NCBI GenBank assembly: GCA_041649675.1
Contig: JBAZMQ010000008.1
Coordinates: 344-64,343, forward strand
Reading direction: 5' to 3'
Length of the DNA stretch: 64,000 bases
From: Patescibacteria group bacterium
GTDB lineage: Bacteria > Patescibacteriota > Patescibacteriia > Buchananbacterales > UBA6539
Of this stretch, positions 648-61,402 are shown in pieces; within the stretch, counting starts at the first letter, position 1, and each line of letters starts with the position of its first letter. Made by a program: the position numbers and the translations under genes. The notes beneath the pieces were generated by a model. The model saw nothing but the letters and a program-made list of their open reading frames with translations. It had not been told where the DNA came from and did no database searches.

Positions 648-826
648 CCTGCTCAAAATGGAGAGGTGCCAGAGTGGTTGAACCCCGCACTAAAACCCGC
701 GATTAATATTTAACAATATTAAATTTTGATTCGCACGAAATCGCCTTTGGCTTGCATTATTTAAAATTCAAAGATTTTTACTAGGTTTAGTACGGGGCAG
801 GTGTGACGGGCATGTCCCGCTTCAAA
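648..826 (+). repeat. tRNA-Ser-like degenerate unit A1. A tRNA 5' half (GGAGAGGTGCCAGAGTGGTTGAA, 660-682) is followed by a ~100-nt structured insert closed by the long-range stem CCCCGCAC (683-690) / GTACGGGG (791-798).
   Basis: Direct sequence comparison with unit A2 (927-1103) shows ~80% identity over ~175 bp, with compensatory changes in the closing stem. The acceptor 5' strand GGAGAGG is complementary to CCTCTCC at 1249-1255. Confidence 0.6.
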
Positions 827-835
827 TGGAGAGGT

Positions 836-878
836 GGCCCCGCCTACGGTCGCCCGAGGCGACCTTCGGCGGGCAGGC
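836..878. repeat. GC-rich nested-hairpin mini-element (CCCGCC-TACGGTCGCC-CGA-GGCGACC-TTC-GGCGGG) inserted just after a third tRNA-like start (GGAGAGGTGGCC, 826-837).
   Basis: A perfect nested inverted repeat in an AT-rich context. Homologous copies lie at 61368-61402 (after 5S) and partially at 61139-61180. Confidence 0.6.
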
Positions 879-926
879 GAGTGCCTAAAAAAAAGTTGTG
901 GCAGGAAATTATAGACAAAGGGCTAT

Positions 927-1103
927 CGTGCTCAAAATGGAGAGGTGCCAGAGTGGTTGAACCCCGCACCAAAACCCACGACTAATTTTTTACGATATTC
1001 AAGCTTGATTCGCGCGAAGTCGCCTCCGGCTTATATTATTAAAATTTAAGATTATTTATAGGTTTGGTGCGGGGCAGGTGCGACGGTTCATCCCGCATAA
1101 AAC
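927..1103 (+). repeat. tRNA-Ser-like degenerate unit A2. It carries the same tRNA 5' half (939-961) and a structured insert closed by CCCCGCAC (962-969) / GGTGCGGGG (1066-1074).
   Basis: It is a tandem copy of A1. Its 3' end, GACGGT (1082-1087), together with CTCGAACACCGT (1203-1214), would reconstitute the Ser(CGA) anticodon stem-loop. Confidence 0.6.
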
Positions 1104-1188
1104 GGAAGGGTGACAGAGTGGTCGAATGTGACGGTCTCGAACACCGTTATCCCGCAAGGGATCGTGGGTTCGAATCCCACCCCTTCCG
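1104..1188 (+). tRNA. tRNA-Ser (anticodon CGA), class II with long variable arm
   Basis: The cloverleaf reads: acceptor GGAAGGG/CCCTTCC; anticodon stem ACGGT/ACCGT with loop CTCGAAC; variable arm TTATCCCGCAAGGGAT; T-arm CGTGGGTTCGAATCCCAC; discriminator G. It is flanked by a perfect 13-bp inverted repeat, TCCCGCATAAAAC (1091-1103) and GTTTTATGCGGGA (1189-1201). Confidence 0.85.
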
Positions 1189-1201
1189 TTTTATGCGGGA
1201 T

Positions 1202-1256
1202 CTCGAACACCGTTAGACCTTAACCGGTCTCGTGGGTTCAAATCCCACCCTCTCCG
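1202..1256 (+). pseudogene. 3' fragment of a second tRNA-Ser-like gene (variable arm, T-arm and acceptor 3' strand CCTCTCC-G) with a duplicated trailer
   Basis: AGACCTTAACCGGTCT plus CGTGGGTTCAAATCCCAC plus CCTCTCCG. The acceptor pairs with the GGAGAGG of units A1/A2. The trailer GTTTTGGGCAGGATCTAAAACACCGTT (1256-1282) repeats the trailer after the intact tRNA (1189-1215). Confidence 0.55.
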
Positions 1257-1344
1257 TTTTGGGCAGGATCTAAAACACCGTTTGGGCGCAAGTTTTCCAG
1301 AGTTCAAATTTTGTACAATGAGTACTGCCAAAATAATTTAGCTT

Positions 1345-3517: not shown

Positions 3518-4261
3518 ATGAAAAAATTTTTATTAATTTTATTTAGCGTCGTGGTGGTTGTGATTGTTGCCGCAGTTAGCTTGCAAATTTTTATCAGCAA
3601 TCAACGTAATCAACAGGCTTTAGTAATTGATAAAAACATTGCCAGTTTTGTCGATTGTGCCAAAGCCGGCTATCCGATTATGGAAACTTATCCCGAGCAA
3701 TGTAGAACCAAGGACGGTAGAACTTTTGTAAAACCAATTCCTAATCCGGAAATTATTGCCGGCGTTGAATCGCTCCAATATAGTGATTCTGAGTTTGGTT
3801 TTTCTTTTTGGTATCCAGCTGGCGCTGAAGTCAGAAAGGAAAATTTGGAAGGCTATTTAAGTTTAGCCAAAGCTGGTTTAGCGGGAATATTTTTACCCCA
3901 GGAATTATTTGTTGGTACGAACTTGGGAGAAGCGGCGGTAATTGTTGGAATTAGTACCAGTCCGGATGCAGTCAGTAAATGTGAACAAATTAACACCACC
4001 AATGATGAAAAAGATTTGGGTCCAGCCATGATTGGGTTTGCCTCCGGTCATAAATTTTCTGCCGTCGGTGTCGGGGCAGGTAATATTTATGAATCAACAA
4101 TTTATCGTTTGGTAAAAAATCAAAATTGTTACGAGATTGTTGAATTATTGCATTCGGGCAATATTTATAATTACGATCCGGGTACGGTTGAAGAATTTGA
4201 TAAAAATAAATTTTTAGGAATTTTGGAAAAAATGGTGCAAAGTTTTGTCTTTAGTAACTAA
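3518..4261 (+). CDS. Hypothetical secreted or membrane-anchored protein
   Basis: N-terminal hydrophobic signal anchor MKKFLLILFSVVVVVIVAAVSL. No catalytic motif recognised. Confidence 0.45.
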   Translation: MKKFLLILFSVVVVVIVAAVSLQIFISNQRNQQALVIDKNIASFVDCAKAGYPIMETYPEQCRTKDGRTFVKPIPNPEIIAGVESLQYSDSEFGFSFWYPAGAEVRKENLEGYLSLAKAGLAGIFLPQELFVGTNLGEAAVIVGISTSPDAVSKCEQINTTNDEKDLGPAMIGFASGHKFSAVGVGAGNIYESTIYRLVKNQNCYEIVELLHSGNIYNYDPGTVEEFDKNKFLGILEKMVQSFVFSN

Positions 4262-9426: not shown

Positions 9427-9454
9427 ATAAGAAATTAATTTTTTAATTTCTTAT
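9427..9454. terminator. Bidirectional intrinsic terminator between rbr (+) and metallopeptidase-1 (-)
   Basis: Perfect palindrome ATAAGAAATTAA-TTTT-TTAATTTCTTAT flanked by A- and T-runs. Confidence 0.6.
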
Positions 9455-11637
9455 TTTTTTATCTCAAAGACAATCGGATGAGGCAAATCACGGTAGCCGC
9501 CGGAGTTATACAAGATAAAATCAGGCAGGCTGATTTTGCAGCCATCGGCTGTCATTTCCGAAATCACACCTTTCTTTGGCACATTCCAAGAGGTGTTATT
9601 TTGTGGGACAGTGGCGCTTTCACCGGAAATTTCATTATGAATCGTGAAGCCCGGGGTTTCAAATTTGCCCTCTTTAGTCACAGCTTCAAACGTGCCGTCT
9701 TTCAGGACTGATTCCGCACTTAAATCAAATTCTAAATAATGATCATAAGCAAAATTCATGGCGCTTGAAGTGATAAACAAAGCCGTCTGGCTGGGCCAAT
9801 CTTCCCGATAAGTGACTTTAACTCTCCATTTACCCAAGTAAGCATATTTGGCCTTGGCCGGGACCGAATCTTTAACTAATTCACCTTCAGCCTGATATCT
9901 GACAATACCAGTATAGTTTGGGCTAACAGCAAAGATGGGTTTAGAAACCATAGTCTCCCCTTGATTAATTTCATAGCACGACTCTTGAGTCTTAACTTTA
10001 ATGTCGCTTACGTCTATTTTATTTTTCATTTCGGCATTGCTGAAAATCAAAATAATTCTGTCAAAATCTTCATCCGCCTTGTCAAAGCAAAAACTGCGGC
10101 TTTCTTTGTCGGTCCAATCTTCGGTGTAGGGTTGGCCATTATTTTTTGGATAGATTATGGCCTTGATTGCCGCGTTGCCACTTTTGCCGGTAAAATTTTT
10201 CAGATCTTTAAAGACTGCTTTACGTACACCTTGCGCGTCGCTAAAGAAAGTTTCAATCACCTGGGCCGTCAGCGGTTTTAATTCTTTGGTGGGAATACTA
10301 GTTTCGCCGGGTGCCAAGAAAATCATATCGTTATTGTCTTTTTGATTGGTATCACCGGTGAACTTTTTACTCTGGTCGGCTTTTTTATAATTTTCGATTG
10401 GGTTTTGATTAAAATTCCACAAGGTAAATTCTTTCCAGTTTTTCTTAAAGCCGCCGTTAATGGTTTTTTCGGCACTGGCCAGCGGAGTAGAACCGCCGGT
10501 ACAACCTTCAAAAATTTTAGTGACAATCATCCGATCATAAGTATTGGATAGATAAAAAGGAAAAACATAAGCGCCATATTCAAAATTTTTGCCATTTTCA
10601 AACAAGCTCGTGGCCGGTCTTGGAATAAAACTTTCAACATATCCTTGTTCAGTATTATCTTTGGGGTAGATCATATCTTCCGACCAGGTAGCTGTGCCTT
10701 CAATCCACCACCAGTTGGCGACGTAAAGCCGGCATTCAAAAGCCCGTTGAAAGGCGTGGAATAATTCATGAACGGTTGTAGTCTTTAAATATCTGTCATT
10801 TAAATTTTCTCGAAGGATGATATAACTGCTTTTGCCATTGCCGTTATCCGGCACGTTAACGCCCTGGGAAGGTGAACCACCTTTCGAATCAGCTAAATGA
10901 ACATGGGCACCAGTTGCTATAAAAATATCGGTTTTATTATCGCCACCCAAAGTTCCGTCCGAAGGGGGAGTTTTCCCAAGTAAGCCGACAAACTGGGCAT
11001 AGGCGCCGTCGGCATTTAAGTTTGCCACAATTTTTTGGGCGACATTATAATAGAGCTTAGTGACTTTTTCCTCGCTGTTAACCATTTCCTTTTTTTCCAG
11101 ATACCAGACTTTAATTTTGCCATCGGCAGTTATTAAAGTGTCATCGGATTTGTAAGACAGGGGACGATCAAAAGCTTTGGCTTGATCAATTAGTTGAAGC
11201 CAGCTGGTTTGTGGCGCTTGGATTTCACCATTCATAATTTTACTCATCGCGCTTTCCGGATTATCCGGCCGCAAAAAATACGGCGCCAAAGTCTTTTTAG
11301 TTTCAGCTGTTAGTTTGCTCCAGTTTTCGGCAATTTCGCCAAAAGTGCCGCCATCTTCAAACGGCCCATTGGCGCTGGCATATTCTTTTGGCAAAGTTGG
11401 GTCATTGAATAAAAATTTAACCTTATTGATCAAAGCCGTGTCTAAATTAATTTTGCCTTCAGCTAAGTCTTTTTGGATTGAATCAAGGCCGGTTGGCTCG
11501 TTACTGTAGCGCGGGTCAGTAAATTTGTCAGCTTCGGCCACTTTGGCTTTCTCGCCTTTGGGTAAGAAAAAATAAAGACCGACTCCAGCGGCAAGAATGA
11601 TGGTCGCTGCAATGATTAAAATTAGTTTCTTTTTCAT
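9451..11637 (-). CDS. Secreted gluzincin-type metallopeptidase (HExxH...E; peptidase-MA-like), paralog 1
   Basis: Signal peptide MKKKLILIIAATIILAAGVGLYFF. Zinc motif TVHELFHAFQ with a downstream WWWIEGTATWSED glutamate. Shares NxxWxxFSxxTKxxLxPFLL and EATATW motifs with the 13290-15512 gene. Confidence 0.65.
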   Translation of the reverse strand: MKKKLILIIAATIILAAGVGLYFFLPKGEKAKVAEADKFTDPRYSNEPTGLDSIQKDLAEGKINLDTALINKVKFLFNDPTLPKEYASANGPFEDGGTFGEIAENWSKLTAETKKTLAPYFLRPDNPESAMSKIMNGEIQAPQTSWLQLIDQAKAFDRPLSYKSDDTLITADGKIKVWYLEKKEMVNSEEKVTKLYYNVAQKIVANLNADGAYAQFVGLLGKTPPSDGTLGGDNKTDIFIATGAHVHLADSKGGSPSQGVNVPDNGNGKSSYIILRENLNDRYLKTTTVHELFHAFQRAFECRLYVANWWWIEGTATWSEDMIYPKDNTEQGYVESFIPRPATSLFENGKNFEYGAYVFPFYLSNTYDRMIVTKIFEGCTGGSTPLASAEKTINGGFKKNWKEFTLWNFNQNPIENYKKADQSKKFTGDTNQKDNNDMIFLAPGETSIPTKELKPLTAQVIETFFSDAQGVRKAVFKDLKNFTGKSGNAAIKAIIYPKNNGQPYTEDWTDKESRSFCFDKADEDFDRIILIFSNAEMKNKIDVSDIKVKTQESCYEINQGETMVSKPIFAVSPNYTGIVRYQAEGELVKDSVPAKAKYAYLGKWRVKVTYREDWPSQTALFITSSAMNFAYDHYLEFDLSAESVLKDGTFEAVTKEGKFETPGFTIHNEISGESATVPQNNTSWNVPKKGVISEMTADGCKISLPDFILYNSGGYRDLPHPIVFEIKK

Positions 11638-11647
11638 AAAATTTTTT

Positions 11648-11722
11648 TGTCATGCCGGCCTTGAGCCGGCATCCAGGGTTAATATCGTGCGACTCTGGAT
11701 TCCCGCGTTCGCGGGAATGACA
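11648..11722. repeat. TGTCAT...ATGACA palindromic element (copy 1), in the 5' leader of metallopeptidase-1
   Basis: Terminal inverted repeats TTGTCATGCCGG / CGGGAATGACAA with internal hairpins GCCGGCCTTGAGCCGGC and TCCCGCGTTCGCGGGAA. Homologous to 15526-15601. Confidence 0.6.
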
Positions 11723-11900
11723 ATAAAGAGTTAAGGTTTAATGACGGCTTTATTATAGCAAAAAACCGCCTTCTCGTCCCGTCCTTATGAAAGGCGGGGG
11801 TAGGCGATTATTATCTCAACTTAATAAATTTAGTTTAGTATGTTATAATGTAGTTAAGGTTGGGCCCGGGTAGAATTTCTACCCGGGCCTTGTCTAATTG

Positions 11901-13289: not shown

Positions 13290-15512
13290 CTAATCCATCT
13301 TCCTATATTCCCAATCAATCGTGCCTTTGATATTATCTCCCGGCTGGTAGGTGGTATGGCCTTTAATCACTTTGTCATTGGGCTTGATGGTAATTTCAAT
13401 TGGGTTGGGGGCATAAGAGTAGCTGGCGGAATACTCGGTATTACTGCTTTCCTGATAACCGCCCCAGGCGTTTTGTAATGGCAGAATGAAGGAACAGTTT
13501 TTTTCCAAATACTGCCAGTAGCTGGTGGTTTTGAATTGTCTTTGAGCCGTGGCTGAATCGGGATCAGGCTTGATGTCAAAACCGATTTCATAAGGGCCGC
13601 CGATTTTGCCGGTTAAATCTTCGGCGTGAGTGGTGCCGTAGATTCGGCTGTGTTGTTGCTCTTCATTTTTGAGATCATAGATATAATTACCATTGCCGCT
13701 GGTGGTACTGCGTGAATTGTCAAAAATTACACCGCAGCCGCCCCGGCCACCCTGATAGGTTTTGTTATATTTTTCATTGAAGGTAAAATTATGTTTTTTT
13801 ACTAACAACTCATCATTTTCCGGATCATATTCGAGTTCTTCATGAATCGAATAAGAACCGCCAGTTTTCACATTGCCGCTGGCTTTGCCATAATCCATAT
13901 ATGCTCCCTGCCAACTGACGCGAACCGTGCCAATCCAGCCTGGGCCGCATTTTTTTTCCGCTTTGGTTTTTAAGTTGCCATTGGCGAGATTAATGATATC
14001 TGAATTGGTGGTAATCAAAACGGCAGCGGTGATGTTTTCCTCGTCCAAATTGCGACAGAAAGTCCGTTCCGGCAAATTTGACCAGTCTTCGTAATACCAA
14101 TTGTCACCAATCTTAATTAGGGCTTGCAAACCCTTGGGTCCATTTTCGTTGGGCTCAAATGCCTTAACGTCAAAAGTCAGTTTTTTAATATTATCATTGG
14201 TCAGATAGTAGAAATAATATTTCGCCCCACCTCTTTCTAAACTGACGGCTTCGGTTTTTTCACCAAATGAATGCAGCGGAATCATTTTCATTGAAGCGCC
14301 TCCGGGAGTAATGGCGGGAAATTGGGGCGTATCGTTGTGGTAAATAAATGGTATTTGATTCCAGTTCCAGAAAGAAAATTCTTTGAATTCATCATTAAAG
14401 TCCGGCCGGGATTTCAAAGCTTGGCGGGCGGCATTGGTTTGTTTGGCTCTAGCCAAGGCTAAAGCGATGTCTTGGCCACCGCCACCGGCTTTTTCGGTCA
14501 AATAATAAAACCAAAGATAAGAAGCATATTCGTGGCTGGCTTTAGTGCTTAATAAATCCCAGTTAGTGTAGTTAAAAAAATCAGAATCATATTCGTGTTC
14601 AGTGTTATAGTTATGATAAACAAAATCTTCAGCCCAAGTGGCGGTGGCTTCCATCAGCCATTTCATATCCAATTCATATTTGAAACCATAAAAATATTGG
14701 TAGCAATGAAAAACTTCATGAGCCGTGGTGGCCTGAGTTATTTTTTGATCCAAACCAGTTTTGATTCTAACCACGCAGATTTTATTGGAGACCGGATTTA
14801 AAGAAGCTTGGCCGTAGCCGGAAAGACCGCGGCTGTTTAAATAAATATTGATTTTTTTGTCAGTCAAATCAATGCCAAGTAAGTCAGAAAATTTTGGCAC
14901 CGAATCAACCGCGGCAGTTTGAGCCCAAACATTATTTTGATAATCCTGTTGTTCGCGCGATTTATCATAGTAAACGCTGACTTGGGGCAAAGGTTTTGAT
15001 TCAACCCAGACTGTCGCTGGCGCCGCCCCGGCCGGCTTGATTAAAAGTAGCTTATCCCAAAGATTTTTTTCCTCATCAGCGGTCAAAGCCGGACTGTAAT
15101 AACTTTTGGGATCATCCGGCGGCAGTAAAAAGGGGAGTAAAGCATCTTTTGTCTGTTGAGAAAAAGAATTCCACTTTTCATTAATTAAGCCGAAAAGATA
15201 GGCGTCATCAGTGGAAACTGGCGCGCCTTGGAATTCTGCCGGTAATTTAGTCTGGTCAGCCAAGCCAATCACTTGATAAACTATACTTTGTTCCTCGGTG
15301 ATTTTGTCCGCCGTTTGCGCGGCTTGAATTTTATCCGCACTAGTTTCTTGATAAGGAACTTCTGGCCTGTATGATTCAACGATTTTTTTTACTTGGGGAT
15401 CAGTAATTTTTGAAGGGTCAATTGTTTCTTGAGCCGTCTGATTGTTTTTATTAAAACAGCCGGTGGTAAATAGGGTCAGGAGGATTAGTAGTAAAAATAG
15501 AGGTTTTTTCAT
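13290..15512 (-). CDS. Secreted gluzincin-type metallopeptidase lipoprotein (HExxH...E), paralog 2
   Basis: Lipobox LFTTGC. TTAHEVFHCYQ with downstream MEATATWAED. Paralogous to 9451-11637. Confidence 0.65.
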   Translation of the reverse strand: MKKPLFLLLILLTLFTTGCFNKNNQTAQETIDPSKITDPQVKKIVESYRPEVPYQETSADKIQAAQTADKITEEQSIVYQVIGLADQTKLPAEFQGAPVSTDDAYLFGLINEKWNSFSQQTKDALLPFLLPPDDPKSYYSPALTADEEKNLWDKLLLIKPAGAAPATVWVESKPLPQVSVYYDKSREQQDYQNNVWAQTAAVDSVPKFSDLLGIDLTDKKINIYLNSRGLSGYGQASLNPVSNKICVVRIKTGLDQKITQATTAHEVFHCYQYFYGFKYELDMKWLMEATATWAEDFVYHNYNTEHEYDSDFFNYTNWDLLSTKASHEYASYLWFYYLTEKAGGGGQDIALALARAKQTNAARQALKSRPDFNDEFKEFSFWNWNQIPFIYHNDTPQFPAITPGGASMKMIPLHSFGEKTEAVSLERGGAKYYFYYLTNDNIKKLTFDVKAFEPNENGPKGLQALIKIGDNWYYEDWSNLPERTFCRNLDEENITAAVLITTNSDIINLANGNLKTKAEKKCGPGWIGTVRVSWQGAYMDYGKASGNVKTGGSYSIHEELEYDPENDELLVKKHNFTFNEKYNKTYQGGRGGCGVIFDNSRSTTSGNGNYIYDLKNEEQQHSRIYGTTHAEDLTGKIGGPYEIGFDIKPDPDSATAQRQFKTTSYWQYLEKNCSFILPLQNAWGGYQESSNTEYSASYSYAPNPIEITIKPNDKVIKGHTTYQPGDNIKGTIDWEYRKMD

Positions 15513-15525
15513 AAAGTTTTTATTT

Positions 15526-15601
15526 TGTCATGTCGGATTCAATCCGGCATCCAGAGTTAATTTGTATTACTTCTTGATCCCGCATCAAGTGCGGGATGAC
15601 A
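15526..15601. repeat. TGTCAT...ATGACA palindromic element (copy 2), in the 5' leader of metallopeptidase-2
   Basis: TTGTCATGTCGGATTCAATCCGGCA...GATCCCGCATCAAGTGCGGGATGACAA, followed by AGGTTTAATGACGGGTTTATTATAGCAAAA, which is also conserved at 11727-11762. Confidence 0.6.
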
Positions 15602-15652
15602 AGAAAAGGTAAGGTTTAATGACGGGTTTATTATAGCAAAACCTATTACCAA

Positions 15653-24086: not shown

Positions 24087-24218
24087 AGTATTACTTCTTG
24101 TCTTTAAGATATCATATTTTTATTAGCTTGTAAATGATTTGATATTGGGTTTGTTTTGTGGTATATTAAAATCAGTTTTAATAATATTAACAATCAATTT
24201 TAGAAAGGGGGTGAAACA

Positions 24219-24578
24219 ATGAGAAAAATTGCAATTTTAACTACTCTAGTGGCAATTTTTGCTATCAGCGTTTTACCGGCGCTAGCTTTAGACGTCGGTT
24301 TGAACTATGGTACTTACACTGGTTTAGGGACTAAAGATATCCGTGAAGGAATCATGGCCGTAATTAGAATATTGCTAGGCTTTTTAGGCATTATCGCCAT
24401 CGTGATTATGCTTTACGGCGGTTTTGTTTGGTTAATTTCTGCTGGTAACGAAGAAAAAGTTGGTCAGGCCAAAAAAATTATTACCGCTGGGGTGATTGGT
24501 TTGGTTATCATCTTTGTCTCTTACGCTTTGGCCACCTTCGTCGTTAGCCAACTTATGACAGCCACTGGGGCTATTTAG
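24219..24578 (+). CDS. Small secreted 2-TM protein, VirB2/TrbC-pilin-like (tandem paralog 1)
   Basis: Sec signal (…LPALA|LD), then two hydrophobic helices separated by SAGNEEKVGQAKK, 119 aa. RBS GAAAGGGGGTGAAACAATG. Confidence 0.4.
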   Translation: MRKIAILTTLVAIFAISVLPALALDVGLNYGTYTGLGTKDIREGIMAVIRILLGFLGIIAIVIMLYGGFVWLISAGNEEKVGQAKKIITAGVIGLVIIFVSYALATFVVSQLMTATGAI

Positions 24579-24663
24579 TTATAATTTAATAAGTTTAGAC
24601 TTGAATTGATTTTTGGTAAGATATCTAAGCCTTTACTTATATTATTTGAAAGGGGGTGAAACA

Positions 24664-25023
24664 ATGAAAAAATTTATTGTTTTAACAGCGTTAGTTTCAG
24701 TTTTCCTTTTTTCCGCTATGCCAGTTTTGGCCTTAGAAACCGGTTTGAACTATGGTACTTACACTGGTTTAGGGACTAAAGATATCCGTGAAGGAATCAT
24801 GGCCGTAATTAGCGTATTACTAGGCTTTTTAGGCATTATCGCCATCGTGATTATGCTTTACGGCGGTTTTGTTTGGTTAACTTCTGCTGGTAATGAAGAA
24901 AAAGTTGGTCAGGCCAAAAAAATTATTACCGCTGGGGTGATTGGTTTGGTTATCATCTTTGTCGCTTACGCTTTGGCCACCTTCGTCATTAGCCAACTTA
25001 TGACAGCCACTGGAGCTGTTTAA
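24664..25023 (+). CDS. Small secreted 2-TM protein, VirB2/TrbC-pilin-like (tandem paralog 2)
   Basis: Near-identical mature region to 24219-24578 (about 90% nt identity from LNYGTYTGLGTKD onward), with an identical RBS and a different signal peptide. The start is taken at the internal MKKF rather than the ORF-track 24613. Confidence 0.4.
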   Translation: MKKFIVLTALVSVFLFSAMPVLALETGLNYGTYTGLGTKDIREGIMAVISVLLGFLGIIAIVIMLYGGFVWLTSAGNEEKVGQAKKIITAGVIGLVIIFVAYALATFVISQLMTATGAV

Positions 25024-36038: not shown

Positions 36039-36125
36039 TGGTGCCCAGAGAGGGGGTCGAACCCTCACGGCCTTGCGGCCACAGGATTTTAAGTCCTGCG
36101 TGTATACCAGTTTCACCACCTGGGC
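36039..36125 (-). tRNA. tRNA-Leu (anticodon TAA), CCA encoded
   Basis: The reverse complement reads GCCCAGGTGGTGAAACTGGTATACACGCAGGACTTAAAATCCTGTGGCCGCAAGGCCGTGAGGGTTCGACCCCCTCTCTGGGCACCA, a class II cloverleaf with anticodon loop CTTAAAA. Confidence 0.85.
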
Positions 36126-36323
36126 ATTAAAATTTTAAAAACCAAATCTCAAAGCTAAAAAATTAGGAAGTCGCCTGGCGGCGACTGATATTGTTTTTTA
36201 ACATTAATTATAATAAGATAAAAGCAGTTTTATGTCAATCCTGCACCGAAGCTCGCGAATTAAATGGTAATGGAATTTTTATTTCATGGCCACTTTAAAT
36301 TATTTGATTTACTTAAATAAACA

Positions 36324-40335: not shown

Positions 40336-40417
40336 TGCTAGTCTTGCAATTTTATTTGTTTTTGTTATAATAACCTTTGTAACTTTTGCGGGCTTGCCCC
40401 GCCGAAGTGAAACGTAG

Positions 40418-40515
40418 GCGGGTGTAGTTTCCGCCAAAGGCGGATCCGCCTCTGGCGAACAGTGGTAGAATGTCTCCTTGCCAAGGAGAAGATCGCCGGT
40501 TGGACCCGCACCAAA
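40418..40515 (+). pseudogene. Degenerate tRNA-Gly copy with a GC-rich double-hairpin insertion in the D-loop and a truncated T-arm
   Basis: GCGGGTGTAGTT[TCCGCCAAAGGCGGATCCGCCTCTGGCGAA]CAGTGGTAGAATGTCTCCTTGCCAAGGAGAAGATCGCCGGTTGGACCCGCACCA versus the intact gene 35 bp downstream. Confidence 0.6.
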
Positions 40516-40550
40516 GGAATACCTTTTTAAAATAGGCTTAACTATTTAGA

Positions 40551-40624
40551 GCGGGTGTAGTTCAGTGGTAGAATGTCTCCTTGCCAAGGAGAAGATCGCC
40601 GGTTCGAATCCGGTCACCCGCTCT
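40551..40624 (+). tRNA. tRNA-Gly (anticodon GCC)
   Basis: GCGGGTGTAGTTCAGTGGTAGAATGTCTCCTTGCCAAGGAGAAGATCGCCGGTTCGAATCCGGTCACCCGCTCT with a canonical cloverleaf and discriminator U. Confidence 0.88.
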
Positions 40625-40807
40625 GAGTAGTTAAGTTTTTTATTTTGGTGCGGGGTAAAAATCCGGCCTGTCCCGGCCAAAATAACCTAAAAATCAGATT
40701 TTTGTATTAACAAACAAGTCGCCAAATGTGGCGATTTTTTGGTTAAAAAAACCTGCCTTTGTGCGGTGCACTTGGGCAGGTAAGTTTATTTATTGTTCCT
40801 CCTGGGA

Positions 40808-51725: not shown

Positions 51726-52088
51726 TTATTTTTTTAGAGATTTTTCTAAATCGGAGATTTCTGTCCATAACATTGCACCGATTTCTTCGGCCAGTTTTAT
51801 TCCGATTGAATGGTCATTTTCAGTAATAAAATTTTGTTGTTGGGAAAAATGTAATAGGTATTTTGATTCTTTTAAGGAGCCGTAGGAAATTTCCAAAAAA
51901 TTTAATTGAACTAAAGGTTTTTTTCGAGCATAACCTTCAAGATAGTTCAAAATTATTGAAAGGGTTGATCGTCTCCATTGGGAAACGCTGCCATATAATT
52001 CTCCTTTAGGAAATTTTTTTGTCACCCGATAGACAAATTTGACGTATTCATCAGCTTTCATTTTTAATTTATTTTGGAATTTGCTCAT
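51726..52088 (-). CDS. Four-helix-bundle protein of the '23S rRNA intervening-sequence protein' family
   Basis: YRVTKKFPKGELYGSVSQWRRSTLSIILNYLEGYARK...EISYGSLKESKYLL closely follows the family consensus (…[30 protein letters not shown]…A.GSL.EL.T.L). 120 aa. Confidence 0.75.
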   Translation of the reverse strand: MSKFQNKLKMKADEYVKFVYRVTKKFPKGELYGSVSQWRRSTLSIILNYLEGYARKKPLVQLNFLEISYGSLKESKYLLHFSQQQNFITENDHSIGIKLAEEIGAMLWTEISDLEKSLKK

Positions 52089-52260: not shown

Positions 52261-52321
52261 GACTAATTGACAATTAGGCCAAAATTAGTAATTATTATAA
52301 GGTAAAAGTAATAAAAATGGG

Positions 52322-52398
52322 TGAGTGGTGAAATTGGCCCGCCTTCGCCAAAGCTACGGCGGGTAAATATACACGCATCTATTTTAAAATTAAAAATC
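52322..52398 (+). pseudogene. Degenerate 5' portion of tRNA-Leu with a GC-rich hairpin (CCCGCCTTCGCCAAAGCTACGGCGGG, 52338-52363) inserted in the D-loop
   Basis: GAGTGGTGAAATTGG[...]TAAATATACACGCAT parallels the D-arm GTGGTGGAATTGGTATACACGCAT of the intact gene. Confidence 0.5.
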
Positions 52399-52399
52399 A

Positions 52400-52486
52400 G
52401 CAGGCGTGGTGGAATTGGTATACACGCATGCCTTAGGAGCATGTTCCCGAAAGGGATTGAGAGTTCGAGTCTCTCCGCCTGCACCA
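52400..52486 (+). tRNA. tRNA-Leu (anticodon TAG), CCA encoded
   Basis: GCAGGCG-TG-GTGGAATTGGTATACACGC-A-CATGC-CTTAGGA-GCATG-TTCCCGAAAGGGAT-TGAGAGTTCGAGTCTCTC-CGCCTGC-A-CCA. Confidence 0.85.
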
Positions 52487-52529
52487 AAAATTGTAAGCGG
52501 TTCGCTTGCCCCGCACTAAAGATATATTG

Positions 52530-52660
52530 AGGCGCATGCTTGCCCGCCGAAGCGAAGCGGAGGCGGGCCTTAGGAGCACGTGCCGCAAGGCTTGAGAGTT
52601 TCCGCCAAAGGCGGACCCGCCTCTGGCGGGCGAGTCTCTCCGCCTGCACCAAAAATTACA
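52530..52660 (+). pseudogene. Degenerate tRNA-Leu(TAG)-like copy lacking the acceptor/D-arm 5' part, with GC-rich hairpin insertions in the anticodon stem (52542-52568) and T-loop (52599-52631), ending in CGCCTGCACCA
   Basis: CATGC[TTGCCCGCCGAAGCGAAGCGGAGGCGGGC]CTTAGGAGCACGTG...TTGAGAGT[TTCCGCCAAAGGCGGACCCGCCTCTGGCGGGCG]AGTCTCTCCGCCTGCACCA. Confidence 0.55.
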
Positions 52661-52760
52661 AAAGGTTTGCCACCAAACCAAAAAAATTATAATCGCCTAA
52701 TGGGTGATTTTTTGGTATAATTAAAGTATTGATATTAAATTTCAAAAATTAGCTAAATTT

Positions 52761-57731: not shown

Positions 57732-61037
<3,306 letters not shown>

Positions 61038-61216
61038 AATTGGGAGCGTTGAATTTTGATTTATTCTTTTTAAATTACCAGAAGCCAAGTATCCGAAATA
61101 CTCTGTTTTTGCCTTCGGATGCTTCCTTTTGGTGGTTTTATCCGCCTACGCTCTCACTGCGTTTGAGCTTCGGCGGATAAGGGCGAAAAATTGTTCATTA
61201 AAGTGGGTTTTAGAGT

Positions 61217-61367: not shown

Positions 61368-61402
61368 CCCGCCGTAGGTCGCCTAAGGCGACCGAAGGCG
61401 GG
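61368..61402. repeat. GC-rich nested-hairpin mini-element (CCCGCC-GTAGGTCGCC-TAA-GGCGACC-GAA-GGCGGG)
   Basis: Homologous to 838-873. Lies between the 5S gene and the terminator. Confidence 0.55.

Follow-up and report, generated by a model that had tools for sequence, protein, structure and literature searches.

Halves of an older tRNA-Leu copy and small palindromic insertions around a working tRNA-Leu(TAG) gene of a Patescibacteria genome

We analysed a stretch of 64,000 nt from a Patescibacteria group bacterium (GenBank assembly GCA_041649675.1, contig JBAZMQ010000008.1, positions 344 to 64,343 of the forward strand), hereafter the window. It contains a working tRNA-Leu(TAG) gene flanked on both sides by tRNA-like DNA. 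The flanking stretches are the 5' and 3' parts of one older copy of this gene. Dead tRNA halves and rRNA spacers of the window carry GC-rich palindromic insertions of 29-35 nt. Here and at similar loci, the flanking pieces most likely stem from earlier copies of the gene that were divided in two by the entry of a newer copy, itself flanked by short inverted repeats. The explanation that we favour for the whole, by a modest degree, is a single tRNA transcription unit in which the gene was replaced at least once and which small palindromic insertion elements colonised later.

The window is AT-rich (35-48% GC). It holds a 23S-5S unit and four tRNA genes on which ARAGORN and Rfam agreed: Ser(cga), Leu(taa) at 36039-36125, Gly(gcc) at 40551-40623 and Leu(tag). 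NCBI names the source a metagenome-assembled genome of the Patescibacteria group; close relatives bear the label Candidatus Buchananbacteria. Loci from other contigs are given L numbers.

The composite tRNA-Leu(TAG) locus

At the Leu(TAG) locus ARAGORN and Rfam recognized a single intact gene (Table 1). Neither called a tRNA in the flanking pieces. In gap-tolerant alignments, the 5' fragment matched nt 7-30 of the tRNA with a score of 35.1, compared with 13.8 +/- 2.7 for shuffled sequences (maximum 26). This score was reached by 0 of 2000 shuffles and by 0 of 1269 other 100-nt segments of the same sequence. The alignment of the 3' copy covered nt 26-87 and was broken by two clean gaps, of 29 nt (hairpin A) and 30 nt (hairpin B); the copy terminated in CGCCTGCACCA. 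Its score was 76.2, against 22 +/- 4 for shuffles (maximum 49). An AT-rich spacer of 20 nt separates the 5' remnant, ending at 52379, from the intact gene. The initial ~19 nt of the working trailer recur behind the 3' remnant, and the trailer similarity between the copies is ~88% over 40 nt. Promoter-like and terminator-like sites enclose the complete composite locus, as they do at the Gly locus.

In an independent assembly (ENA ERZ27247363, L001) the locus was identical except for one single-nucleotide polymorphism (SNP) at 52341, which disrupts a stem pair of hairpin D. The same structure being present there, an assembly artefact is excluded. An initial annotation of this DNA had described the gene as flanked by hairpin-bearing copies of itself, and we recovered all elements of that description at the same positions or within a few bases of them. 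Its wording "decayed copies" was right in that tRNA-Leu pieces lie on both sides, but these are complementary halves, 5' upstream and 3' downstream, and not two whole copies.

Table 1 Features of the tRNA-Leu(TAG), tRNA-Gly and tRNA-Ser loci and hairpins of the rRNA unit in the window.
Feature	Position	Strand	Remarks
Leu: promoter-like site TTGACA-17-AATTAT	52267..52295	+	ahead of the entire composite locus; kept in orthologous loci L013, L016 and L018
Leu: 5' remnant of older copy, part 1	52320..52337	+	GGTGAGTGGTGAAATTGG; acceptor 5' strand, D-loop
Leu: hairpin D	52338..52363	+	CCCGCC-TTCGCCAAAGCTAC-GGCGGG; with trailing TAAA a 30-nt D-loop insertion
Leu: 5' remnant, part 2	52364..52379	+	TAAA + TATACACGCATC; D-stem 3' strand, anticodon-stem 5' strand
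Leu: working tRNA-Leu(TAG), encoded CCA	52400..52486	+	ARAGORN and Rfam, 57.7 bits
Leu: trailer of working copy, 45 nt	52487..52531	+	small hairpin GCGGTTCGCTTGCCCCGC and motif CCCCGCACTAAA
Leu: 3' remnant, part 1	52532..52539	+	GCGCATGC; anticodon-stem 5' strand; ~5-nt overlap with end of 5' remnant
Leu: hairpin A	52540..52568	+	TTGCCCGCC-GAAGCGAAGCGGAG-GCGGGC; 29-nt insertion at anticodon stem/loop boundary
Leu: 3' remnant, part 2	52569..52600	+	CTTAGGAGCACGTGCCGCAAGGCTTGAGAGTT; TAG anticodon loop, short variable arm of L013/L018 type, T-stem 5' strand
Leu: hairpin B, 30-nt twin hairpin	52601..52630	+	TCCGCCAAAGGCGGA + CCCGCCTCTGGCGGG; in T-loop between GTT and CGA
Leu: 3' remnant, part 3	52631..52651	+	CGAGTCTCTCCGCCTGCACCA; T-loop 3' part, acceptor 3' strand, ACCA; matches working copy exactly
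Leu: terminator-like hairpin and T-run	52691..52709	+	closes the composite locus
Gly: promoter-proximal dead tRNA-Gly copy (nt 1-56)	40388..40501	+	hairpin A 40393-40422, twin hairpin B 40430-40459
Gly: ~155-nt unit	40502..40656	+	ends are inverted repeat CCCGCACCAAA / TTTGGTGCGGG; encloses working tRNA-Gly
Ser: whole locus, nested layers	660..1313	+	several dead halves around working tRNA-Ser(CGA)
Ser: three upstream 5' halves	660-682, 828-838, 939-961	+	hairpin C (839-873) accompanies 828-838
Ser: ~110-nt inverted-repeat inserts	683-793, 962-1074	+	CCCCGCAC(C/T)AAA ends
Ser: working tRNA-Ser(CGA)	1104-1188	+	perfect inverted repeat ATCCCGCATAAAAC / GTTTTATGCGGGAT on either side
Ser: two downstream 3' halves	1202-1256, 1270-1313	+	
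GC hairpin in 23S-5S spacer	61141..61177	+	TCCGCC...GGCGGA
Hairpin C copy after 5S gene	61368..61402	+	CCCGCC-GTA-GGTCGCC-TAA-GGCGACC-GAA-GGCGGG

Split gene copies at other loci and in relatives

A tRNA gene accompanied by its own fragments was found at three of the four tRNA loci of the window, and at several tRNA loci on related and other AT-rich contigs; tRNA-Leu(taa) had no fragments alongside. At the Gly locus, the upstream copy reached an alignment score of 104 (shuffle maximum 36), and the copies are 98% identical over 45 nt. The working tRNA-Gly sits on its own 15-nt leader/trailer inverted repeat, and a short 3' remnant (40657-40678) directly follows the ~155-nt unit. The Ser locus contains tandem repeat units of 279 nt and 68 nt. 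Its outer halves pair perfectly (GGAGAGG in the 5' half with CCTCTCC in the 3' half) and have their own variable arm. The working tRNA-Ser has a GGAAGGG/CCCTTCC acceptor and a variable arm unlike that of the outer copy. Perfect pairing together with these differences from the working gene indicates that the outer copy was once a functional, different allele. That the Leu pattern recurs at the Gly and Ser loci, as the initial annotation had it, was thus borne out.

The arrangement of the pieces followed one polarity. In a set made up of the window and 92 AT-rich loci, the four upstream pieces were without exception 5' parts and the seven downstream pieces 3' parts (11 of 11), in line with the earlier suggestion of a systematic process and not of random decay. 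At four loci (Ser, L018-Leu, Gly and window-Leu) the two halves shared their breakpoint within 0 to ~6 nt. Such coincidence is predicted by one splitting event, and not by two independent duplications. When the halves were joined and the inserts deleted, ARAGORN called a tRNA-Leu(tag) and a tRNA-Ser(cga). The units at Ser, Gly and L018, and likewise the ~110-nt inserts, are bounded by the motif CCCGCA/TGCGGG; 10 of its 21 occurrences lie in tRNA loci, which make up 3.4% of the window (p = 5e-10). A similar inverted-repeat unit of 80 nt was found in an ordinary spacer of L052.

The gene order around the Leu locus (GuaA, LTD/PKD protein, a gene of the intervening sequence (IVS) protein family, tRNA-Leu, DUF3160, PGA_cap) was kept in relatives, with a DUF3160 protein 63-76% identical. 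The fragments varied. Only promoter, gene and terminator were present in L016 and L020. L013 had a 5' fragment and no 3' fragment; its 5' fragment holds a ~110-nt inverted-repeat insert starting CCCGCCT, which follows GTGGC at nearly the site of hairpin D, only a few D-arm bases before it. In L018 the order was 5' fragment, ATCCCGCACAATTGGT, gene, ATTGTGCGGGA, 3' fragment; the breakpoints meet exactly at nt 23|24, and the acceptor strand of the 3' fragment comes from a different allele. This variation indicates that individual lineages have added the fragments, between a promoter and a terminator that are conserved.

Over 85 nt, no difference separates the working tRNA-Leu(TAG) from the gene of L020 (L020:2267-2351), although the neighbour protein of L020 is only 63% identical; from that of L013 (L013:3914-3998), the 76% relative, it differs at many paired positions. 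The remnants have their D-loop and short variable arm in common with L013, the closer relative. Anticodon-stem, variable-arm and acceptor types are shuffled among the relatives, giving mosaic alleles. At the orthologous Gly position, L145 has a gene of the window type and neither hairpin. L147 and L148 have hairpin A there, before a different tRNA-Gly allele, and the terminal GCGGG of the hairpin serves also as the 5' end of that gene. A scan of genome contigs with the DUF3160 neighbour gave relatives only at <=54% identity. The synteny of tRNA-Ser(cga) was not kept among the homologues of its neighbour gene; in the closest relative, a tRNA-Ser(tga) without fragments is packed tightly between genes.

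We propose that a newer gene copy with short flanks was placed inside the resident gene, and would have separated its halves in one step. At Ser, Gly and L018-Leu, the flanks of the newer copy would be the inverted repeat ending CCCGCA...TGCGGG. In a single-copy essential tRNA gene, the disruptions tolerated would be insertions or partial duplications that leave one complete copy. Survivable events having to leave one complete gene, only 5' parts would be expected upstream and only 3' parts downstream.

Several other features of these loci were recorded. Cassette ends are ATCCCGCA...TGCGGGAT, and the octamer ATCCCGCA of the left inverted repeat of the Ser cassette (1090-1097) also makes the variable arm of the working tRNA-Ser (1151-1158, ATCCCGCAAGGGAT). 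Within the ~110-nt Ser inserts, a weak terminator-like hairpin precedes AT-rich sequence that resembles a promoter. In L009 (189-358), a tRNA-Ser(gct) 3' fragment lies downstream of the gene; its T-loop is split by a GC-rich hairpin-forming insert of ~140 nt, and the fragment stops at the start codon of the next gene. On the minus strand of L067 (2650-2850), tRNA-Arg(gcg) is followed by 73 nt with two GC-rich hairpins and then by an internal self-copy. This copy (nt 16-68) is 100% identical, yet its acceptor 3' strand differs, which suggests gene conversion between working gene and remnant. The gene of the "23S rRNA intervening sequence protein" family that adjoins the Leu locus lies at 51726-52088 and is syntenic in relatives. 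The motif CCCGCACCA was considered as a CCA-bearing tRNA 3' end, which would point to an RNA/retro-copy origin or a permuted tRNA. With a 9-nt deletion, the Gly upstream copy can be aligned in this way. However, the discriminator base is not the same, and the motif also stands behind a tRNA-Ser D-loop, which makes such an end doubtful.

The palindromic elements and a candidate enzyme

The pattern CCGCC-N(3-24)-GGCGG, a slightly widened form of the hairpin consensus suggested earlier, occurred 10 times in the window, with 0.69 occurrences expected. The GC hairpins that had been noted after the 5S gene, in the 23S-5S spacer and near 836-878 were all present (Table 1). Types A, B and C have two copies each in the window, at 80-90% identity, and A and B are each present in both the Gly and the Leu pseudo-copies. 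Compared with uninterrupted genes (six Leu and three Gly), B produced clean gaps of 30 nt. In both tRNA pieces of the window it is inserted after GTT.

A metagenome scan found the generalised B element on at least 120 contigs, which, together with the shared A and B hairpins and the clean gaps, speaks for the hairpin mini-element assumed in the initial annotation. Location counts and the consensus were derived from 75 copies among the matches listed, on contigs with a GC content <=0.52. The consensus is tTtT-CCGCC-nnA-GGCGG-AT-CCGCC-Tnn-GGCGG-AaAa, and the family unit is a 30-nt palindrome, twice TCCGCCnnAGGCGGA, with the centre GGATCC. Of these copies, 40 lie inside long open reading frames (ORFs); 33 of the 40 use the frame S-A-x-G-G-S-A-x-G-G and none an Arg-rich frame. 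Ten host ORFs were checked (GyrB, FtsK, RecG, ArgRS, MutL, PGI, GatB, DnaE, an M50 protease and a ComM-type protein), and all kept their full Pfam domain sets. In glutamine synthetase and GatB, comparison with solved structures gave exact 10-residue insertions. The DNA junction in glutamine synthetase was TTT^AAA, with no duplication; target-site duplications, for which a check had been proposed, were not seen for B. Examples of in-frame copies in housekeeping genes (among L025-L144) are L119:4099, L084:12027, L025:1382 and L076:1748. Element B inserts precisely and without target duplication; its copies on other AT-rich contigs have mostly been kept in frame, at linker regions of housekeeping proteins.

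Copies in tRNA pieces were few: ~4 of ~77 among the matches listed, two of them in the window, one inside the anticodon of a tRNA-Tyr 5' copy (L047) and one after CAGTT of a tRNA-Val 5' copy (L126). Only four contigs, among the matches listed, had a tRNA within 400 nt of a twin hairpin. The family is therefore not tRNA-specific, and retention where harmless explains the copies in tRNA pieces. In the same set, the left flank was T in 96% of copies, and the flank consensus is merely T-rich on the left and A-rich on the right. Scans of viral contigs gave no match to B, none to the junction of Ser 5' half and inverted repeat, and one to the generalised twin hairpin. In the literature searched, which did not cover all journals, we found no description of the twin-hairpin element or of its presence in the candidate phyla radiation (CPR).

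A role of the twin hairpin as an intrinsic, bidirectional terminator was rejected, for T precedes and A follows the hairpins on both strands, the reverse of a terminator. A terminator scan picked other hairpins, at the ends of the loci. The stem GTCGCC...GGCGAC is common to terminator-like hairpins and to the inner stem of hairpin C (40716-40737, ~36160-36185, 1017-1032, 61377-61393). The FtsK ORF of L044 (7364-9706), which carries a twin hairpin, also has two similar Pro/Gly-rich segments (PPRLSGTPPPQGGDEE, PPRPSGTPPQRGGEAP) that may be in-frame copies of another GC-rich family.

The initial annotation had proposed to look for a cognate enzyme of the Y1 transposase class. We found a candidate in L145, the relative whose TrmB-like protein is 75% identical: an ORF of 172 residues directly after the orthologous tRNA-Gly (L145:3416-3934; L146:2969-3487), resembling the tyrosine transposases (RAYTs) that accompany repetitive extragenic palindromes (REPs). 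It matched Pfam Y1_Tnp with a score of 26.4 (gathering cut-off 23) and NCBIfam REP_Tyr_transpos with E = 1.9e-17. The ORF itself holds, in frame, a perfect GTAG-tagged palindrome, CGTAGAGGCGCCC/GGGCGCCTCTACG, with 13-bp arms (3697-3727). Searches of the window and all loci with this protein by tblastn gave only self-matches.

The small palindromic elements may be similar to REPs and their doublets (REPINs), and may have been moved by a RAYT-type Y1 (HUH) transposase, for example of the type encoded beside the orthologous tRNA-Gly. Their persistence in tRNA remnants would be explained by insertions doing no harm at such places. Landing may also be more frequent there, as highly transcribed stable-RNA loci expose single-stranded DNA.

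Alternative explanations and known systems

Gene replacement followed by colonisation with palindromic elements has to be weighed against several observations that speak against it. With respect to replacement, (i) the acceptor strand of the Leu 5' remnant is not complementary to that of the 3' remnant; (ii) around the working Leu gene of the window there is no CCCGCA...TGCGGG inverted repeat; (iii) the mosaic Leu alleles indicate that gene conversion has blurred the history; (iv) the joined constructs called by ARAGORN required slight manual trimming and are thus supportive only; and (v) in-situ duplication would account equally well for the resemblance of the copies in their leaders (Ser) and trailers (Leu). 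With respect to the elements, (vi) all eight CCGCC-type hairpins of the window lie in tRNA/rRNA loci, which form 27% of its non-coding DNA, so a local bias to such transcription units is possible, and there may be real targeting rather than retention alone; (vii) hairpin types A and C, searched by pattern, were absent from 144 fetched loci except for the duplicate of the window in L001; (viii) the link to an enzyme would depend on one relative, whose RAYT-like ORF scored 63.5, below the curated NCBIfam cut-off of 80; and (ix) no transposase or integrase was found in the 64-kb window by Pfam on the ORFs tested, including ten unannotated ones.

The flanking pieces could instead be classical attachment (att) scars. 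Elements with a tyrosine integrase would have repeatedly entered the tRNA gene, bringing a replacement part and displacing the host part, and would later have been deleted to a few dozen bases. At Ser a breakpoint falls in the anticodon loop and at Gly one falls in the T-loop, and Williams reportedly named these loops in 2002 as favoured crossover sublocations of integrases. Short 3'-end repeats of the usual type were found in L012, L009 and L092, and displaced tRNA fragments are a known integration signature (PMC9897764; for the Islander database, PMC4383910). We consider this explanation unlikely. An integrase was neither in the window (ORFs tested) nor listed near the orthologous loci, and only 13-150 nt separate the repeats at every locus. 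Upstream 5' fragments are as common as downstream 3' fragments. Integration normally gives a hybrid gene, whereas Ser, Gly and L018 hold between the halves a complete gene with its own 5' half, and the current 5' strand of L067 is not complementary to the displaced 3' strand. Cycles of integration and decay, offered in the initial annotation, were therefore not supported in their usual form, with no integrase and "islands" of only 45-150 nt.

In-situ partial tandem duplication, by replication slippage or unequal crossing-over and independently on each side, would make the polarity rule automatic, with selection keeping one intact gene and hairpins arriving later. The similarity of leaders and trailers, the near-identity of the Gly copies and the tandem units of the Ser locus agree with it. 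The coincidence of left and right breakpoints at four loci is not expected from it, nor are the outer Ser halves, a perfectly paired different allele from which the working gene differs by compensated changes and by its variable arm. The working Leu gene is closer to a distant relative than to its own remnants, and the CCCGCA...TGCGGG ends are conserved on units in different genes and genomes. These findings make independent duplications improbable.

It is more doubtful still that the hairpin element actively targets tRNA-like DNA and that its insertion into live tRNA genes drives cycles of duplication and decay. The confinement of the window's hairpins to stable-RNA loci would fit, as would the position of B after GTT in the window and in L126 (CAGTT^) and in the anticodon in L047; in L147, moreover, the 3' end of hairpin A regenerates the 5' end of the working tRNA-Gly. 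Against this, protein genes or other spacers hold most members of the family, few contigs have a tRNA nearby, the flank consensus is simply T-rich and A-rich, and the fragment-bearing L018 and L013 lack the twin hairpin. A preference for tRNA-like DNA, as first suspected, was consequently not seen at the level of the family.

A functional RNA, either an archaeal-type split or multi-intron tRNA or a processing scaffold whose hairpins would be RNase III sites in the manner of rRNA processing stems and intervening sequences, is very improbable: the whole locus is probably one transcript, judging by its promoter-like and terminator-like sites, folding of the composite RNAs is much stronger than that of shuffled sequences (z = -5.4 to -9.3), leader/trailer helices of 21-22 bp carry the working Ser and Gly genes and the insert positions resemble those of non-canonical archaeal tRNA introns, but Rfam (also at a permissive E-value for the Leu and Ser loci) and ARAGORN recognized neither a tRNA nor another family in the pieces, the acceptors of the Leu halves are not complementary, the anticodon stem has a mismatch and there is no second 5' half, each locus has a canonical gene, the pieces are absent in relatives L016, L020 and L145, a population SNP disrupts a hairpin stem pair, and low folding energy is expected of any nested repeat. 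The archaeal-type split or multi-intron tRNA in particular was rejected on its unpaired acceptors and the canonical gene per locus, with bulge-helix-bulge geometry judged by eye.

A bolder form of the replacement reading, which we regard as a long shot, would take the units with CCCGCA...TGCGGG ends for REPIN-like single-stranded DNA elements that carry a complete tRNA gene at the hairpin tip. A RAYT-type Y1 transposase would paste them into loops of the resident gene for the same tRNA. Patescibacteria would then have a "tRNA cassette" mechanism dedicated to replacing essential single-copy tRNA genes by foreign alleles, and the nested halves would be its fossils. The twin hairpins would be the smallest members of this superfamily, spread through protein genes as in-frame linkers of Gly, Ser and Ala.

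Among known systems, the elements were closest in several traits to REPs and REPINs with their RAYT (Y1/HUH) transposases (Bertels & Rainey 2011, PMC3116915; PMC3337134; for GTAG/CGTC-tagged REPs, PMC3733652). Both are G-C-rich palindromes of 20-40 nt in dispersed, near-identical copies, and both form doublets and spacer-bearing inverted-repeat units, here those ending CCCGCA...TGCGGG. Insertion is precise, without evident target duplication; the single RAYT-like gene of the relative carries a GTAG-tagged palindrome, and GTAG stands beside the inner stem of the hairpin C copy at 61368-61402. Unlike REPs, which are extragenic by definition, more than half of the twin hairpins listed on AT-rich contigs are inside long ORFs, those of the window being all extragenic. 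The twin-hairpin consensus has no GTAG/CGTC tag, each type has only 2-3 copies in 64 kb, some units enclose a whole tRNA gene as "spacer", and no RAYT was found in the window.

Selfish palindromic DNA that is GC-rich within a reduced AT-rich genome is also known from yeast mitochondria, whose AT-rich genomes contain GC clusters, and from the Rickettsia palindromic elements (RPEs), which Ogata et al. are said to have described in 2000. Like RPEs, the twin hairpin survives in frame in conserved protein genes and occurs also in RNA genes and spacers. It differs in its perfect symmetry centred on GGATCC, its strong SAxGGSAxGG frame bias, its Patescibacteria-type host genomes and its length, 30 nt versus ~100-150 nt; given this gap in size, we take homology to RPE families to be unlikely. 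Palindrome-associated transposable elements (PATEs) derived from IS200/IS605 have distinct left and right subterminal hairpins and insert 3' of a fixed target of 4-5 nt, without duplication. B has two hairpins and no duplication; its left flank is T in nearly all copies listed, in a consensus that is just T-rich and A-rich. Its hairpins extend to the very ends of the element, unlike those of canonical IS608 ends. Palindromic selfish DNA has been reviewed elsewhere (PMC3184786, PMC10969869).

Displaced fragments of integrative elements (PMC9897764; Islander, PMC4383910) likewise leave a working tRNA gene beside partial copies of itself, and such remnants may accumulate serially. The loci described here differ in that there is no integrase or island, 5' fragments also lie upstream, complete copies are nested between complementary halves and the spacers measure tens of bases, not kilobases. 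Intervening sequences of 23S rRNA are likewise extra stem-loops in stable-RNA transcription units, and the 23S gene of the window has two. These measure ~130 nt, are AT-rich and share no sequence relationship with the CCGCC hairpins, and they lie in functional rRNA, not in dead tRNA pieces or spacers. The differences from the known systems are (i) gene copies nested in complementary halves without an integrase, (ii) a 30-nt twin hairpin largely in protein genes and (iii) inverted-repeat units that can enclose a tRNA gene. The mechanism behind them is one that we infer.

The genomes of Patescibacteria (CPR) are tiny, with tRNA genes in single copy and hardly any spare DNA. If our reading is true, their tRNA loci have been repeatedly overwritten by gene copies, and the only junk so produced gives shelter to miniature palindromic mobile DNA. 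Elements of this class are tolerated in core enzymes such as gyrase, the replicative polymerase and enzymes of aminoacyl-tRNA synthesis, as a flexible insert of 10 residues. Annotation would be affected, through pseudo-tRNAs and unexplained inserts in CPR proteins. The elements could serve as natural markers for strain tracking and for horizontal exchange of tRNA alleles. The twin hairpin and the RAYT-like protein would form a compact candidate pair of substrate and enzyme for single-strand DNA transposition in an uncultivated phylum.

Further repeats were recorded in the window. The 23S gene measures 3303 nt, compared with a model of 2925 nt, and contains two AT-rich stem-loop insertions of ~130 nt resembling intervening sequences (59164-59293 and 59580-59712; also 57963-58026); the two are related, at ~88% identity. 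Two paralogous large genes on the minus strand (9451-11637 and 13290-15512) share upstream segments (11642-11763 and 15520-15641, 81-92% identity). These segments include a hairpin, GTCATGCCGGCC...GGCATCC, and may represent a common leader or regulatory element. Two tandem genes for small membrane proteins are 87% identical (24200-24499 and 24645-24944; ORFs 24219-24578 and 24613-25023).

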